This document shows positions 37,744 to 47,699 of a stretch of DNA of 64,000 nucleotides, piece by piece; position 1 is the first letter of the stretch, and each line of letters begins with the position of its first letter. Origin of the DNA: Bibersteinia trehalosi (GTDB lineage: Bacteria > Pseudomonadota > Gammaproteobacteria > Enterobacterales > Pasteurellaceae); contig NZ_SMAM01000006.1 of NCBI RefSeq assembly GCF_004346205.1, positions 38,839 through 102,838 on the forward strand, read 5' to 3'. A program made the translations under genes and the position numbers. The notes beneath the pieces are model-generated. The model searched no databases. It had not been told where the DNA came from and saw nothing but the letters and a program-made list of their open reading frames with translations.

Positions 37744-38796
37744 ATGAAACACAACATGGCGAGGAAATTTGGGTTAAAGAAGAGGGTTAGCTTGCTTAGC
37801 GCTTGTTTGGCATTCACGAGCTTGGCAAATAATGCTCAAGCCGAAGGCAAGCTGACTATTTATTGCAGTGCACAAAATGCAACCTGTGAAAAAATTACCC
37901 AGACATTTGCGAAAAAATATAATGTGGATGCGAAATTTGTGCGTAATAGCACGGGGGCTACACTTTCTAAAATTAAAGCTGAGCAAAATAATCCTCAGGC
38001 GGATGTTTGGTATGGTGGAACAATTGAGCAGCATTTCCAAGCAGCAGATTTATCGCTATTAGAAAAATATCGTTCACCGATGCAGCAAGAGACCCTACCT
38101 CAATTTAAAACATTGCTGGAGAAAAAAGGCGATTTTACCTCGATTATTTATATGCTAGTGCTAGGCTTTGGCGTAAATACAGAAGTCTTCGCTAAATTAG
38201 GGATTAAGGAGTATCCACGCTGTTGGAAAGATTTGACTCATCCACAATTAAAAGGGCATATTCAACTGGCAGATCCCCAATTATCTGGCACGACTTATAC
38301 TGCAATTGCCACATTGATTCAATTATGGGGTGAAGATAAAGCATTTGAATTTTTGAAACAGCTTGATGCAAATGTTTCACAATATGTAAAAAGTGCGCAA
38401 GTGACTTCAAATCTTGCTCGTGGTGAAAGTGCATTAAGCGTTGGTTTTATCCATAACTATGCCACAGAAAAAGAAAATGGCGCACCAGTTGAAGCGATCT
38501 TGCCTTGTGAGGCGGATAGTTACTCGTTAGGTGGGGCAAGTATCATCAAAGGCTCACGCAATTTAGATAATGCAAAATTGTTTATTGATTGGGTATTAGG
38601 GGCTGAGGCGCAAGAAATTCCATGGCGTGAAGTCGGTGTTTACCAACTGCCAACGAATGTCAATGCTGAGGCAGCACCACAATCGGTCGATCCAAAAACA
38701 TTAAATCTAATTAAAATGGATTTTGATCGTTTTGGGACAAGTGAAGAAGGTAAGCGTTTAACCGAGAAATGGCTCAAAGAAGTTAAAATCAAATAG
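37744..38796 (+). CDS. orphan ABC transporter periplasmic substrate-binding protein (FbpA/AfuA/ThiB-type)
   Basis: Signal peptide ending NNAQA; PQADVWYGG resembles the ADVFYSEQ region of ferric-binding proteins. GGGGAA RBS before this ATG (track start 37720). No adjacent permease. Confidence 0.55.
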   Translation: MKHNMARKFGLKKRVSLLSACLAFTSLANNAQAEGKLTIYCSAQNATCEKITQTFAKKYNVDAKFVRNSTGATLSKIKAEQNNPQADVWYGGTIEQHFQAADLSLLEKYRSPMQQETLPQFKTLLEKKGDFTSIIYMLVLGFGVNTEVFAKLGIKEYPRCWKDLTHPQLKGHIQLADPQLSGTTYTAIATLIQLWGEDKAFEFLKQLDANVSQYVKSAQVTSNLARGESALSVGFIHNYATEKENGAPVEAILPCEADSYSLGGASIIKGSRNLDNAKLFIDWVLGAEAQEIPWREVGVYQLPTNVNAEAAPQSVDPKTLNLIKMDFDRFGTSEEGKRLTEKWLKEVKIK

Positions 38797-42362: not shown

Positions 42363-42589
42363 ATAGACCTCATAAAATATAAAAAAGATAGCATAAATTC
42401 TAGCGAGCTTATGTTATTCACAAAAGGGGCAAACTTTATTTAAATCAAATTTTTATTGAATTAATTTCTGTTTACAAAAAATTAACATACTATCCCAATA
42501 ACAATTTTATGCAAATTTTTTTACAACTTCTTGTTAGAGTTTAACTACTTGCCCGTCTAATACTCCATTAGCACAATTTTGGAGTTTTT

Positions 42590-43045
42590 ATGTCCTGTTA
42601 CACTGTTAAAAATGTTACCCAAGGAGCTGGTTTACTGGTTTTACGCTTATTTCTTGCCTATGAATTCTTTGAGGCGGGGTGGGAAAAGCTACATGGTGAA
42701 AACTGGTTTTCTGCGATTGAGGATAACTTTCCTTTTCCTTTCAATTTATTACCCGCCGATCTGAATTGGTTTACAGCGATGAGTGCTGAACTATTTTTAC
42801 CTATTTTGCTTATTCTGGGATTATTCACTCGCATCAGTGCTATCAGTTTGATGATTTTAACTTCAGTAGCCTGGTATTCGGTACACGCAGGATTAGGCTA
42901 CAACGTATGTAGTAATGGTTACAAAATGGCATTAATTTATTTGGTCACGTTATTGCCGCTATTAATGCAAGGTGCTGGAGCACTATCTTTTGATTTTCTG
43001 TTACAGAAAAAACAGCCAAGCAGATCTTGGTTGAAATTCCTTTAA
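42590..43045 (+). CDS. DoxX-family membrane protein (first gene of Hvf-like cluster)
   Basis: 151 aa; 4 TM helices; DoxX family. Confidence 0.75.
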   Translation: MSCYTVKNVTQGAGLLVLRLFLAYEFFEAGWEKLHGENWFSAIEDNFPFPFNLLPADLNWFTAMSAELFLPILLILGLFTRISAISLMILTSVAWYSVHAGLGYNVCSNGYKMALIYLVTLLPLLMQGAGALSFDFLLQKKQPSRSWLKFL

Positions 43046-43075
43046 TTTTGAACTCAACACTATGGAGAATTTTTC

Positions 43076-43435
43076 ATGAAAAAAGCAACTTTAATGGCAC
43101 TAGCCGGTGCATTAACAATGGCAACAGCAAATGTAAATGCAGAAACTCATGCGACTGAGCATGTAATGGAAGCCAAAATGATGAAAACCAAAGCAGCCGA
43201 AGGGAAATGTGGTGAAGGAAAATGTGGCGCGACAAGTGAAGCCAAAGCCGCTGAAGGTAAGTGTGGTGAAGGTAAGTGTGGCGCAACAAACAGTATGAAG
43301 GCAGCCGAAGGAAAATGTGGCGAAGGCAAATGTGGAGCGACAGTAGCTGACAGTAATAAAAAAGCCATGAAACCTGCAGCACCAAAAGCGGCAGAGGGAA
43401 AATGTGGCGAAGGTAAGTGTGGCGCCAGTAAGTAA
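43076..43435 (+). CDS. hvfA: secreted EGKCG-repeat precursor protein (HvfA-like oxazolone/thioamide RiPP metal-binding protein)
   Basis: Signal peptide (…ANVNA|ETH); four copies of AAEGKCGEGKCGA giving 8 EGKCG motifs; followed by DUF692 and DUF2063 genes. Confidence 0.75.
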   Translation: MKKATLMALAGALTMATANVNAETHATEHVMEAKMMKTKAAEGKCGEGKCGATSEAKAAEGKCGEGKCGATNSMKAAEGKCGEGKCGATVADSNKKAMKPAAPKAAEGKCGEGKCGASK

Positions 43436-43449
43436 TCTTTAAGTCCCAA

Positions 43450-43480
43450 CCCCCTCTTTTTCAAAGAGGGGGTAAATTTT
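43450..43480 (+). terminator. strong GC-rich hairpin (attenuator/partial terminator) after the precursor gene
   Basis: Perfect 10-bp stem CCCCCTCTTT-ttc-AAAGAGGGGG with only a weak U-run (TAAATTTT). Confidence 0.5.
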
Positions 43481-43612
43481 CAAAGGAGACATCATGTTCG
43501 CCATTTTTTATCAGAAGGTAGTTTACTTCTTATTGAAAAAAGTGGGGATAGTGAGGTGGTTTACAAGCGGTCAAAATCTTTCTATTTTTTGCAAATTATT
43601 AAAGGAACAATA

Positions 43613-44515
43613 ATGCTGAAATTTCAAGGTGCAGGTTTGGGCTATCGCCGTGATTTAGCGGATGGTTTTTTAAATTTAACAGATAATAGTGTTATCAATT
43701 TTATGGAGGTCGCGCCGGAAAACTGGCTCAAAATGGGTGGTCAGGCGCGTTATAACTTTGATAAAGTCGCGGAGAAAATTCCTTTGGTTATTCACGGGTT
43801 ATCGCTCTCTTTAGGTGGGCAAGCACCATTGGATATGACATTGCTCAAAGGAATTAAAACCATGCAACAGCAGTATAATTCCTTCTTTTTTTCCGATCAT
43901 TTAAGTTACTGCGAATGCGAAGGACATTTGTATGACCTATTGCCAATGCCATTTACTGATGAAGCTGTACATCATGTGGCAAATCGTATTAAGCAAGTGC
44001 AAGATTATCTTGGTATGCGGATTTCGCTAGAAAACACCTCCTATTATCTCCATTCACCGACAAGTACGATGAACGAAGTGGAATTTCTTAATGCCATTGC
44101 ACAGGAAGCCGATTGTGGTATCCATTTGGACGTGAATAATATTTATGTGAATGGGGTTAATCACGGCCTATTAGATCCCTTTGTGTTTGTAGATAAAGTG
44201 GATAAAAAGCGGGTGGACTATATTCATATCGCTGGGCACGATGAAGAACATGGTGCGGCAGAGGCCGTGAGAATGACAGAGGGCGAGTCATTTAATAAGG
44301 TGAAAGGTGAGCTGCGTCATCTGCCGACTTTGCTGGTGGATACACACGGCGAAACGGTGCAGAAAAGCGTATGGGATTTATTAGCATACACTTATGAGTG
44401 TTTACCGCATATTCCACCGACATTATTGGAACGAGATTTCAATTTTCCGCCATTTCAAGAATTGCTTGGGGAAGTTCAGCATATTGCGGCGTTGCAGCAG
44501 AAATATGCCAAGTAG
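43613..44515 (+). CDS. hvfB: DUF692-family multinuclear non-haem iron enzyme (MbnB/HvfB-like)
   Basis: TIM-barrel DUF692 signature; start set at [13 protein letters not shown] preceded by AAAGGAACAATA (track start 43556 is GTG). Confidence 0.8.
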
Positions 44516-44524
44516 GAGTGAGTT

Positions 44525-45235
44525 ATGTTACAGAAATCATTAAAAGAAACTCAAACAGAATTTGCCAATGCGATTCGGTATAATGATGCTAGCTTAATGA
44601 GTGGTAATATTTCGCCGCAACGTTTGGGAGTGTATGCACGTTTAGTTCGGAATAATACACTGGGTTTTATTGATCGCTGCTATGTGGAATTAGCAAAGCA
44701 TTTAAGTGCCGAAGATTGGTGGGCAATCAAAGAGAAATTTGTGCGTGAAGGTAAAGCACACTCGCCTTTTTTCCAAGATATTGCCGCTGAATTCTTAGTA
44801 TTTTGTCGAGAAACGCAGTGTGTTGAGCCGCATTTGTTAGCCCTCATGGATTTTGAAAACGCCCAACTTGCCGTAGAAGTCGCGATGGCTAATGTGCCTG
44901 CCGAATTCGAATGGGATAACGATACTATTATGCAATTTTCCAGTGCGGCAGAGTTGCGCCAGTACGGGGTAAATTTTCTGCATAGTGGTTTTCAACAATT
45001 TGAAAAAGCACCGACTTATGTGCTGATCTGGCGAGATAGCGAATTTGGCATTTACTACCAAACTTTAGAAGAATTGGATTTCTTTCTTTTGACCTCTTTA
45101 CAAGAAAAGGCAAACTCTCTAAATGGATTACTGGATGAATTAAGTGCATTTACTGAGCAAAATCCTGCCTTAAAAATGGTTTTAAGGCAGATTTGGCAAA
45201 AATGGGTAAATGCGGAGGTAGTTTACCCGTGTTGA
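44525..45235 (+). CDS. hvfC: DUF2063-family partner protein (MbnC/HvfC-like)
   Basis: 236 aa; immediately downstream of the DUF692 gene; DUF2063 family N-terminus. Confidence 0.7.
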   Translation: MLQKSLKETQTEFANAIRYNDASLMSGNISPQRLGVYARLVRNNTLGFIDRCYVELAKHLSAEDWWAIKEKFVREGKAHSPFFQDIAAEFLVFCRETQCVEPHLLALMDFENAQLAVEVAMANVPAEFEWDNDTIMQFSSAAELRQYGVNFLHSGFQQFEKAPTYVLIWRDSEFGIYYQTLEELDFFLLTSLQEKANSLNGLLDELSAFTEQNPALKMVLRQIWQKWVNAEVVYPC

Positions 45236-45288
45236 TTTGTTACTTTTTTTGCACAGGCAAAGAAAAGTAAAAGAATAGAGAGAGAATA

Positions 45289-45855
45289 ATGAAAACAATT
45301 CCCCAATCCCAATTAGAAACAATCCGTTTGCAAATGGTGAAATTTGCTACACTTCATCTTAAGAATAGTGAATTAGCCGAAGATGCTGTACAAGAAGCCT
45401 TTGTTAGTGCTTATAAATATGCAGATTCATTTAAAGGACAAGCAGCATTAAAAACATGGATTTTTGCTATTTTGAAAAATAAAATCATTGATGTACTACG
45501 ACGTAAAAATAGAGAAATCATTGTGTCAGAATTACTTGAAGAGGATGATAATGATCTCAGCGAAAAACTTTTCCGCTCTGATGGGGAATGGAATGATGAT
45601 CTTTATCATTCGAGTGAATGGCGGCAGTGTGATTCGCGAGTTTATTCCAAGCAATTTTGGCAAGTGTTTGAATCTTGTTTGAGTAATCTGCCGACCATGC
45701 AAGCGCGAGTATTTATGATGCGTAGCCATTTAGAGATGGATACTGCAGAAATTTGCCAAGCGTGTGAAATATCAAGCGCTAATGTGCATACCTTACTTTA
45801 TCGTGCTAGATTACAACTGCAAGTCTGCTTAACCCAGAAATGGTTTGGAGAATAA
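45289..45855 (+). CDS. ECF-type RNA polymerase sigma-70 factor
   Basis: 188 aa; sigma-70 region 2 and region 4 motifs (NANVHTLLYRARLQLQ). Confidence 0.85.
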   Translation: MKTIPQSQLETIRLQMVKFATLHLKNSELAEDAVQEAFVSAYKYADSFKGQAALKTWIFAILKNKIIDVLRRKNREIIVSELLEEDDNDLSEKLFRSDGEWNDDLYHSSEWRQCDSRVYSKQFWQVFESCLSNLPTMQARVFMMRSHLEMDTAEICQACEISSANVHTLLYRARLQLQVCLTQKWFGE

Positions 45856-45856
45856 C

Positions 45857-46042
45857 ATGTTAAATTGTAAAGAAGCTACTCAGCTATTATCGCTGCGCTG
45901 TGAACAAAAATTGCGTTTTAAACAGCAATTGCAACTTAAAGTTCACTTAATGGTGTGTGGTAGATGTAGAGGCTTCGCGAAAAATAATCAATTACTTGAT
46001 CAGATGATGAAAGAGTTCGCTGAACATAACTCGAAAGAGTAA
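45857..46042 (+). CDS. zf-HC2 (ChrR/RsrA-type) anti-sigma factor, soluble
   Basis: 61 aa from ATG at 45857 (track uses a TTG at 45845); HxxxCxxC motif (HLMVCGRC); overlaps the sigma gene stop. Confidence 0.65.
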   Translation: MLNCKEATQLLSLRCEQKLRFKQQLQLKVHLMVCGRCRGFAKNNQLLDQMMKEFAEHNSKE

Positions 46043-46068
46043 AATAGCGCTAAATAAAGTAAAATAAA

Positions 46069-46110
46069 GGGTTAGACTGATTTTAGGTCTAACCCTTTGA
46101 TTTTTGTGAT
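46069..46110 (+). terminator. rho-independent terminator after sigma/anti-sigma pair
   Basis: GGGTTAGAC-loop-GGTCTAACCC followed by TTTGATTTTTGTGATTTTTTT. Confidence 0.65.
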
Positions 46111-46177
46111 TTTTTTATAAAATTCACCCGCTTGTTTATTTTGCTAAATCTGCTAAAAATGTGATCTAGATTACAAA

Positions 46178-46225
46178 ACTAAAACGTTTTAGCAAAATTC
46201 CCTTTCTTTACTAAAACGTTTTAGC
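46178..46225. promoter_or_regulatory. two identical 14-bp perfect palindromes (CTAAAACGTTTTAG) upstream of the PTS gene; LacI/GalR-type operator candidates
   Basis: Copies at 46179-46192 and 46211-46224; the second abuts a TAGAAT -10-like hexamer at 46226-46231. Confidence 0.5.
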
Positions 46226-46277: not shown

Positions 46278-47699
46278 ATGAACTTTCCTCAAATCGCTCA
46301 ACAAGTGATTGAAAAACTTGGGGGCAAAGAAAACATCACAACGCTTGCACACTGCGCCACTCGCTTACGTCTAACACTTGCCGATGAAAGCAAAGTAGAT
46401 AAAGAAGCAATTGAAAATATTGACGGTGTGAAAGGCCAATTCTCAACATCTGGTCAATACCAAATTATTTTTGGTTCCGGAACAGTCAATAAAGTCCATG
46501 CCGAAATGCAAAAACAGATGGGCATTGGCGATATGAGTACTTCTGAAGTTGCCGCAGCGGGTGCTGCAAATCAGCCATTATTACAACGCTTAGTGAAAGG
46601 CCTTGCCGATATTTTCGTACCGATTATCCCTGCTATTGTGGCGGGCGGTCTTTTAATGGGTATTCACTCAATGCTGACGGCAAACGGTTTCTTCTGGGAA
46701 GGCGAATCGGTCGTGAGCCGTTATCCAAATATTGCGGATCTTGTTGATTTCATCAATACTATTGCAAATGCGCCATTCGTGTTCTTGCCAGTATTACTAG
46801 GTTTCTCTGCAACGCGTAAATTTGGTGGTAACCCATTCTTAGGGGCTGCGCTCGGTATGTTGTTAGTTCACCCTGCATTAGCTGATGGTTGGAACTATGC
46901 CTTAACACTCGCCAAAGGTGAAATCAAATATTGGAATGTTTTAGGTTTAGAAATTGAACGTGTGGGTTATCAAGGTACTGTTATTCCAACGTTAGTATCT
47001 GCTTGGGTATTAGCGACACTTGAGAAAACTTTCCGTAAATTTGTGCCAAGTTATTTAGATAACCTTGTTACACCAATGTTCTCACTCTTCATTGCTGGGG
47101 TATTAGCCTTTACCGTGATTGGTCCATTAGGACGTGAAGCAGGTGATCTTATTACACAAGGTCTAACTTGGTTATATGATACCTTAGGCTTTATTGGCGG
47201 TGGTGTATTTGGTACGTTCTATGCACCAATTGTTATCACAGGTATGCATCAAACCTTTATTGCCGTTGAAACGCAGTTACTTTCTAATATGGCATTATCA
47301 GGTGGTACATTTATCTTCCCTATTGCTGCAATGTCTAATATTGCACAGGGTGCAGCGTGTTTAGGCGTGGCGTTTGCATTAAAAGATGCGAAAGTTCGCG
47401 GTTTAGCTGTACCATCTGGGATTTCTGCGCTATTAGGTATTACAGAACCTGCCATGTTCGGGGTAAACTTACGTTATCGTCAAGCATTCATTGCTGCAAT
47501 GATTGGCTCAGGTTTATCTAGTGCATTTATTGCCTTCTTTAATGTAAAAGCGCAAGCATTGGGTGCTGCTGGTTTCTTAGGTGTACCATCAATTAAACCA
47601 GATAGCCTTGCTATGTATTCAATTGGTATGGCTATTTCATTTATTGTTGCATTTAGCTTATCTGTGATTATGGTTAAACGTGCAAATGCAAAAGCGTAA
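46278..47699 (+). CDS. PTS sugar transporter subunit EIIBC (glucose/sucrose-trehalose superfamily)
   Basis: 473 aa; N-terminal EIIB domain with phospho-Cys motif (HCATRLRL) followed by EIIC membrane domain. Confidence 0.85.
   Translation: MNFPQIAQQVIEKLGGKENITTLAHCATRLRLTLADESKVDKEAIENIDGVKGQFSTSGQYQIIFGSGTVNKVHAEMQKQMGIGDMSTSEVAAAGAANQPLLQRLVKGLADIFVPIIPAIVAGGLLMGIHSMLTANGFFWEGESVVSRYPNIADLVDFINTIANAPFVFLPVLLGFSATRKFGGNPFLGAALGMLLVHPALADGWNYALTLAKGEIKYWNVLGLEIERVGYQGTVIPTLVSAWVLATLEKTFRKFVPSYLDNLVTPMFSLFIAGVLAFTVIGPLGREAGDLITQGLTWLYDTLGFIGGGVFGTFYAPIVITGMHQTFIAVETQLLSNMALSGGTFIFPIAAMSNIAQGAACLGVAFALKDAKVRGLAVPSGISALLGITEPAMFGVNLRYRQAFIAAMIGSGLSSAFIAFFNVKAQALGAAGFLGVPSIKPDSLAMYSIGMAISFIVAFSLSVIMVKRANAKA

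Follow-up and report, generated by a model that had tools for sequence, protein, structure and literature searches.

An hvf operon in Bibersteinia trehalosi, a six-gene member of the known captophorin system

Does the run of six genes at positions 42590-46042 of a 64-kb stretch of Bibersteinia trehalosi DNA (the whole stretch analysed, hereafter the window) belong to the hvf system known from Haemophilus influenzae, what would its peptide product be, and how would its expression be controlled? B. trehalosi causes respiratory disease in sheep and cattle. The original prediction, made from the sequence alone, had described an Hvf-type cluster of six co-oriented genes, and all six open reading frames are indeed present on the + strand, in the order hvfX-hvfA-hvfB-hvfC-sigma-antisigma. 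They encode a DoxX-family inner-membrane protein (hvfX, 42590-43045, 151 aa), a precursor peptide (hvfA, 43076-43435, 119 aa), a multinuclear non-haem iron oxidative enzyme (MNIO; hvfB, 43613-44515, 300 aa), a DUF2063/RRE-type partner protein (hvfC, 44525-45235, 236 aa), an extracytoplasmic function (ECF) sigma factor (45289-45855, 188 aa) and a cytoplasmic Zn-binding anti-sigma (ZAS) factor (45857-46042, 61 aa from its ATG). Domains were called with Pfam and families with the NCBIfam equivalog models, whose curated cut-offs are given below after each score; HvfX, HvfA, HvfB and HvfC all score above them, which bears out the Hvf assignment. The locus is a real, ordinary species member of the known captophorin system, and we consider it highly probable that it is the hvf (oxazolin/captophorin) operon of B. 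trehalosi, with six genes as in the Neisseria type, and with the biosynthesis, regulation and hairpin role set out below. RefSeq already labels homologues from B. trehalosi 'HvfB family MNIO-type RiPP peptide maturase', and the exact HvfB, sigma and AccC sequences are deposited as B. trehalosi proteins (WP_131928572.1 for the sigma factor); our literature search found nothing on an hvf-type system in Bibersteinia.

Firstly, the identity of the enzymes is clear. HvfB matches PF05114 (MbnB_TglH_ChrH) with E = 2.3e-94, and HvfC matches both PF09836 (DUF2063) and PF22106 (NGO1945_C), so that the profile searches proposed as a check returned both of the enzyme domains that had been named. HvfB scored 365.6 on its equivalog model (NF003818, cut-off 360) and HvfC 174.3 on its own (NF050145, cut-off 142). 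In contrast, HvfB failed the MbnB equivalog TIGR04159 (41.3, cut-off 325) and the BufB equivalog NF050167 (252, cut-off 310). The description of the pair as MbnB-like and MbnC-like is therefore right for the superfamily and wrong for the family. The first gene is a DoxX membrane protein, as had been proposed, with a Pfam DoxX match at E = 1.7e-23 and a score of 139.1 on the HvfX equivalog NF050144 (cut-off 80). HvfB aligns over its full length with its H. influenzae orthologue at 76% identity, and HvfX and HvfC are 63% and 52% identical to theirs; HvfB is 91% identical to its counterpart in Mannheimia haemolytica, the nearest among the species representatives of the genome collection, and 62-64% identical to those of Neisseria. 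Residues N175, D242 and H244 of iron site 3 in HvfB of non-typeable H. influenzae (NTHi), substitution of which abolishes activity, are kept here as N176, D243 and H245. The nearest solved structure is that of a Histophilus somni MNIO (PDB 3BWW, E = 1.3e-152). The start of hvfB is placed at the ATG at 43613, a choice that alignment with the orthologues of H. influenzae and M. haemolytica supports; the GTG at 43556 given in the list of open reading frames is an upstream extension.

Secondly, the precursor is of the EGKCG type. HvfA contains exactly four AAEGKCGEGKCGA units (43193-43231, 43247-43285, 43301-43339 and 43388-43426, + strand), that is, eight EGKCG motifs, and all eight cysteines of the protein lie inside them; the length of 119 aa, the four units and the eight motifs had all been read correctly. 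The protein scored 115.6 on the HvfA equivalog NF050188 (cut-off 95), and the KCGExKCG_twice domain (NF050137) matches it four times. The units differ from one another at 4-9 of their 39 nt and every difference is synonymous, implying purifying selection on the peptide motif and no recent duplication of the DNA. A Sec-type signal peptide, MKKATLMALAGALTMATANVNA, is placed at 43076-43141 (+ strand) by similarity to NTHi HvfA, for which cleavage has been shown experimentally (PMC11252979). The number of motifs had been singled out as uncharacterised, yet it falls within the range of 2-8 GKCG motifs carried by the HvfA of relatives, and three other Pasteurellaceae (Bisgaardia, Bisgaard Taxon 46 and Pasteurella sp. 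PK-2025) also have eight; in a published survey, EGKCG precursors span 31-506 residues. What is peculiar to the B. trehalosi locus, and the one local peculiarity that its sequence reveals, is the absence of the N-terminal CxxxxC pair present in most Pasteurellaceae HvfA, that of M. haemolytica included; a His/Met-rich segment stands there instead. In NTHi, HvfA mutated at C38/C43 gave a partially modified product, and N-terminal truncations were still modified (PMC11252979). In another member of the family, Canicola haemoglobinophilus (locus L015, 4639-5000), the hvfA reading frame looks interrupted, with a 60-aa open reading frame and further in-frame-looking EGKCG-coding repeats within the 'intergenic' 179 nt; a frameshift, pseudogene formation or a sequencing error could account for the break.

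What would HvfB and HvfC make of these eight cysteines? The original prediction followed the methanobactin model, in which the two proteins turn each cysteine into an oxazolone/thioamide pair. This was the first assignment made for oxazolin, with six such pairs on NTHi HvfA (2024; PMC11252979), and the term 'oxazolone/thioamide' is still found in NCBIfam model names. However, the structure has since been reassigned by two groups. Using alkylation-assisted heteronuclear multiple-bond correlation, the Mitchell laboratory identified both oxazolin and the N. gonorrhoeae product as 5-thiooxazoles and proposed the class name 'captophorins' (ACS Chem Biol 2026; PMC12668002), and the authors who had originally described oxazolin reassigned their own structure to 5-thiooxazole (bioRxiv 10.64898/2026.06.05.730506). 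A mechanistic paper of 2026 likewise treats HvfB as a thiooxazole-forming enzyme, with a mixed-valent diiron cluster as its active state and a requirement for HvfC. Two independent re-examinations of oxazolin, one of which extends to the N. gonorrhoeae product, together with an MbnB equivalog score of 41 for a cut-off of 325, make an oxazolone/thioamide product in B. trehalosi very improbable. The loss of 4 Da per cysteine is unaffected by the reassignment, and this element of the predicted chemistry stands; the structure itself and the 300-360 nm absorbance put forward as its diagnostic do not, the reassigned product absorbing at ~302-305 nm. Conversion to 5-thiooxazoles and copper binding are known just for the NTHi, N. 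gonorrhoeae and Fontimonas orthologues (PMC12668002; bioRxiv 10.64898/2026.06.05.730506). By analogy with close orthologues, HvfC would bind the HvfA precursor in the cytoplasm, and HvfB together with HvfC would oxidise all eight EGKCG cysteines, by four electrons and with a change of -4 Da per residue, so that each becomes a 5-thiooxazole; by way of its Sec signal peptide, the 97-residue modified peptide would then reach the periplasm or the cell exterior, where the N and S donors of the heterocycles would be expected to bind Cu(I).

Thirdly, the last two genes encode a sigma/anti-sigma pair, and here Pfam and NCBIfam support the families that had been proposed, an ECF sigma factor and a 61-aa zf-HC2 anti-sigma factor. 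The sigma factor carries the Sigma70_r2 and r4_2 domains and scored 233 on TIGR02943 (cut-off 162); its homologues include sigmaE of N. meningitidis (NMB2144) and RpoE2 of H. influenzae, and it shares 39-41% identity with the operon-encoded sigmas of Neisseria and 72% with the hvf-linked sigma of M. haemolytica. The anti-sigma factor matches zf-HC2 and the NCBIfam antisigmaE model (58, cut-off 50), and no hydrophobic or membrane segment was found in its 61 residues. Its Cys4, His30, Cys34 and Cys37 are invariant, at identical positions, in a 12-sequence alignment that includes MseR (NMB2145), in which Cys4, Cys34 and Cys37 matter for activity (PMC2893595). Sigma and anti-sigma genes lie directly downstream, in the same order, in M. 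haemolytica, Bisgaardia, Glaesserella parasuis and all the Neisseria loci examined. At the other end of the gene set, upstream of hvfX, we found a predicted ECF-type promoter on the + strand with a -35 element GTTAGAGTT (42533-42541), a 12-nt spacer and a -10 element CGTCTAAT (42554-42561), the predicted +1 being the A at 42567 and the hvfX ATG following 23 nt later. The promoter consensus of Neisseria sigmaE, GTMAGBWTT-N12/13-CGTCTAAH, is common to the hvf-type operon and msrAB (PMC2893595); the -10 element predicted here matches its CGTCTAAH exactly, and the spacer has the same 12 nt. The motif has this single match in the window, against 0.01 expected; in 11 Neisseria loci it stands, with the same spacing, ahead of the hvfX orthologue, and a TTGTnAnA...GTCTAA block is invariant across five otherwise divergent Pasteurellaceae upstream regions. 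From this conservation we infer that GTTAGAGTT-N12-CGTCTAAT drives the hvf operon as an ECF-type promoter.

The wiring of such an operon had been called uncharacterised, which is true just for B. trehalosi. In N. meningitidis, NMB2140-2145 are transcribed together, under autoregulation by sigmaE and repression by the ZAS anti-sigma NMB2145/MseR (PMC2893595), and in H. influenzae all four genes of the hvf ('doxX') operon are strongly induced by HOCl in an RpoE2-dependent manner (PMC7907618). On the same plan, the 61-aa cytoplasmic ZAS protein of B. trehalosi would keep the ECF sigma inactive until an oxidising or thiol-reactive signal, which is HOCl in H. influenzae, frees it to initiate at GTTAGAGTT-N12-CGTCTAAT upstream of hvfX. 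Since the sigma gene would lie within the transcript that its own product initiates, the result would be positive autoregulation, checked by the co-produced anti-sigma. In H. somni (L085, 5472-5500) and Bisgaard Taxon 46 (L008, 7065-7037), the 3' end of the sigma gene contains a TGTCAGnnn-N13-CGTCTAA motif a short way upstream of the anti-sigma gene, possibly either an internal anti-sigma promoter or a coincidence of the coding sequence; this motif is absent from the B. trehalosi window.

The limits of the transcription unit are consistent with this scheme. Downstream of the anti-sigma gene, a 14-bp stem followed by ATTTTTGTGA forms a strong intrinsic terminator (46065-46099, + strand), and with the promoter upstream of hvfX it delimits the unit well. 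Gene order, a single upstream promoter and a single strong terminator are consistent with co-transcription of the six genes and with autoregulation. The gaps between the genes are, in order, 30, 177, 9, 53 and 1 nt; the short or overlapping junctions that had been described are thus found throughout except between hvfA and hvfB, where the gap is long. An Rfam scan returned no known RNA family in the operon and just two tRNAs elsewhere in the window. Beyond the operon, the stretch from 46065 to 46225, between the anti-sigma gene and a phosphotransferase system EIIBC gene (46278-47699), holds one large terminator-like hairpin on each strand, that of the minus strand with a 20-bp stem.

What, then, is the role of the long hvfA-hvfB junction? 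A perfect stem-loop begins 14 nt past the hvfA stop codon (+ strand; 11-nt arms at 43449-43459 and 43463-43473, 100% complementary, 3-nt loop), and it can equally be read as a 10-bp stem with a TTCA loop. Its folding energy is -20.4 kcal/mol (z = -3.57), and none of 200 shuffled sequences was as stable; the tail that follows, TAAATTTTC, is a weak T tail. A stem-loop stands right after the hvfA stop in 26 of 27 Pasteurellaceae and Neisseria relatives, these being the ones with a usable hvfA call (the Canicola locus is uninformative, as its called reading frame ends early within the repeats), and the sequences of these stem-loops are unrelated; in H. influenzae and Neisseria a clear T run follows the stem. 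A structure kept at a fixed position with no conservation of its sequence argues that it is functional. The original prediction was right about a perfect stem with a poor T tail between precursor and enzymes and had assigned it an attenuator role; the evidence supports partial termination or stabilisation. Most plausibly, judging from its position and fold, the stem-loop is a partial terminator or a 3'-end stabiliser that raises precursor dosage: it would end part of the transcripts, or protect the 3' end of the hvfX-hvfA message, leaving the precursor in excess over the enzymes and regulators.

Alternatively, the hairpin could be a full terminator, with hvfB, hvfC and the sigma and anti-sigma genes forming a separate unit transcribed from an internal promoter in the spacer. 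The spacer is unusually long, at 177 nt as against 57-109 nt in most relatives (100 nt in M. haemolytica), it contains a sigma-70-like match, TTTACA-17-TATTTT, at 43560-43588, and in N. meningitidis the sigma/anti-sigma transcript is detectable without induction, so that a basal internal promoter must exist somewhere (PMC2893595). Yet promoter-like matches in the region number 5, against 11.5 in shuffled sequence, the T tail is weak, and the four H. influenzae hvf genes share the same RpoE2-dependent induction (PMC7907618). Moreover, reverse-transcription PCR in N. meningitidis yields a product that runs from the precursor to the partner gene across the equivalent position, so that read-through past the hairpin must occur (PMC2893595). 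The length of the spacer may also have another explanation, since it carries an Actinobacillus/Mannheimia-type DNA uptake signal sequence, ACAAGCGGTC, at 43563-43572. The window contains six copies of this sequence, against 0.13 expected (the others at 13111, 15224, 23354, 53317 and 55384), and the spacer copy is followed by a conserved block, TTTTTTGCAAATTA, that M. haemolytica has as well. Two separate transcription units are, on balance, unlikely, and we retain a single unit with a partially terminating or stabilising hairpin. A 39-codon open reading frame in the spacer (43494-43613), with an AAAGGAG ribosome-binding site and a TAA stop that overlaps the hvfB ATG (TAATG), was rejected as spurious; it overlaps the uptake signal sequence and is not conserved in M. 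haemolytica, where indels break the frame.

Is the sigma/anti-sigma pair dedicated to this operon, as had been proposed? This is possible but unproven, and in both of the characterised relatives the sigma factor also controls msrAB. Neither an msrAB gene nor a second copy of the promoter motif was found in the window, and the best 120 homologues listed for fused MsrAB, like the best 120 listed for the msrAB-linked (RpoE2-type) sigma, include no entry labelled B. trehalosi. A weak tblastn match at 37777-37980, considered as a second ECF gene in the window, is antisense to a periplasmic binding-protein gene and spurious. M. haemolytica (L083, 3303-5752; L032, 6873-7625), G. parasuis (L086; L019) and Lonepinella each have two paralogous ECF/ZAS pairs, one hvf-linked and the other beside msrAB; in M. 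haemolytica and G. parasuis, this second pair is transcribed divergently from an msrAB-redoxin operon, the promoter of which reads TGTGAGAAT-N13-CGACTAA. A crude neighbour-joining tree separates the clade that contains the B. trehalosi sigma (clade A) from the msrAB-linked clade (clade B). Clade A is not always hvf-linked: in Actinobacillus pleuropneumoniae (L084, 3363-5773) and H. somni (L085, 3369-5753), the clade-A sigma is divergent from an Oxidored_molyb and Ferric_reduct (MsrPQ-type) pair. Across three different genomic arrangements, the sigma family is thereby tied to the repair of methionine sulfoxide in the periplasm.

We also considered whether one base of the -10 element tells the clades apart (CGTCTAA for clade A, CGACTAA for clade B). 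This code fitted all hvf promoters and the msrAB promoters of M. haemolytica and G. parasuis, but it fails in two Haemophilus loci (L087 and L004), where CGTCTAA stands beside a clade-B sigma, and it was abandoned; a search for a -10 site at the A. pleuropneumoniae locus (L084) found none. In the same two Haemophilus loci (L087, 4953-4981; L004, 7166-7193), a TGTAAGAAA-N12/13-CGTCTAA motif faces away from the sigma gene and toward an unannotated gene of ~129 aa, possibly an extra member of the sigma regulon. A tentative and rather speculative scenario is that, of two ECF/ZAS pairs, B. trehalosi kept just the one embedded in the operon and lost the RpoE2-type one linked to msrAB, which would make the regulator truly dedicated, and that its eight-site, His/Met-rich HvfA is perhaps recognised differently by HvfC and binds more copper than oxazolin. 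If this were true, the Pasteurellaceae would constitute a natural series in which to follow the division of a small stress regulon (hvf, msrAB and msrPQ) by a duplicated ECF/anti-sigma pair.

Among known systems, the closest in architecture is that of Neisseria (N. meningitidis NMB2140-NMB2145 and N. gonorrhoeae NGO1948-1943; sigmaE/Ecf-MseR, gonophorin), in which the same six genes are arranged identically, with the 12-nt promoter spacing, an anti-sigma of the Cys4/His30/Cys34/Cys37 type and a terminator-like hairpin after the precursor. It differs in the lower identity of its proteins (62-64% for HvfB, 39-41% for the sigma and ~30% for the anti-sigma), in a sigmaE that also drives msrAB, and in precursors with 2-4 GKCG motifs together with GSCG motifs, unlike the eight EGKCG motifs of B. 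trehalosi. The H. influenzae hvfXABC locus (NTHI1440-1444, oxazolin) has the four core genes in the same order, a Sec-exported AEGKCGEGKCG-repeat precursor, a stem-loop after hvfA and an ECF-type promoter upstream. Its HvfA has three units (six sites) and an N-terminal C38/C43 disulfide, whereas that of B. trehalosi has four units (eight sites) and no N-terminal cysteines; its -10 element reads CGACTAA instead of CGTCTAA; and its RpoE2/HrsE is encoded elsewhere, beside msrAB, whereas the B. trehalosi pair forms the 3' end of the operon. More distantly, the bufferins (BufABC of Caulobacter and Bordetella) and fontiphorin (FonABC) also combine an MNIO with a DUF2063 partner and often a DoxX protein, have a precursor with a Sec signal peptide, convert cysteines to 5-thiooxazoles and yield a copper-sequestering product, and some Buf1 clusters carry sigma/anti-sigma genes. 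Bufferin precursors, however, are of the DUF2282 or 6/12-Cys families and not EGKCG repeats, the B. trehalosi HvfA has no DUF2282 match, and the anti-sigmas of bufferin clusters are NrsF-type membrane proteins, not ZAS proteins as here. Methanobactin (MbnABC) likewise depends on the oxidation of ribosomal-peptide cysteines to a copper-binding heterocycle by the MNIO superfamily, but it differs in its oxazolone/thioamide groups, a precursor with a leader peptide in place of a Sec signal peptide, an MbnC partner and a role in copper acquisition; no match of HvfA to the methanobactin precursor model was found in the NCBIfam scan.

Several points weigh against the operon working in B. trehalosi exactly as outlined. 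To our knowledge, no hvf operon has been reported to be induced by copper, and HOCl is the inducer known from H. influenzae. The predicted -35 element matches just 6 of the 9 positions of the Neisseria consensus, and with no cysteine pair equivalent to C38/C43 in HvfA, recognition by HvfC could differ. The weak T tail of the hairpin means that termination there may be inefficient, and the read-through at the equivalent position in N. meningitidis points the same way (PMC2893595).

The physiological role is the point on which a second account, with the same biosynthesis, departs from the one adopted here. In that account, the operon serves mainly in defence against HOCl and oxidative stress, copper binding is secondary, and a thiolate-bearing peptide acts with DoxX in periplasmic redox protection beside methionine sulfoxide repair. 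The HOCl induction of the H. influenzae operon through RpoE2 extends to msrAB (PMC7907618), the Neisseria operon shares its sigma factor with msrAB (PMC2893595), homologous sigmas in other Pasteurellaceae adjoin msrAB or msrPQ-type genes, and the anti-sigma is a redox-type ZAS protein. In contrast, copper is bound by modified HvfA and by gonophorin, fontiphorin and the bufferins alike (PMC11252979; PMC12668002), bufferins protect against copper stress according to the published survey, and N. meningitidis sigmaE is not induced by H2O2, diamide or singlet oxygen (PMC2893595). We therefore regard a mainly redox-protective role as a credible but less probable alternative to a copper-binding captophorin.

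Earlier work has already described the family of the enzyme, the class of the product, the architecture of the operon and the type of regulator, and the locus opens no new question. NTHi requires the orthologous peptide to invade host cells (PMC11252979), and survival in the mouse lung depends on the H. influenzae sigma factor. On account of these roles, the hvf locus can reasonably be put forward as a candidate determinant of virulence or stress in this veterinary pathogen, and it represents a compact, self-regulated version of the hvf system that could serve heterologous studies.

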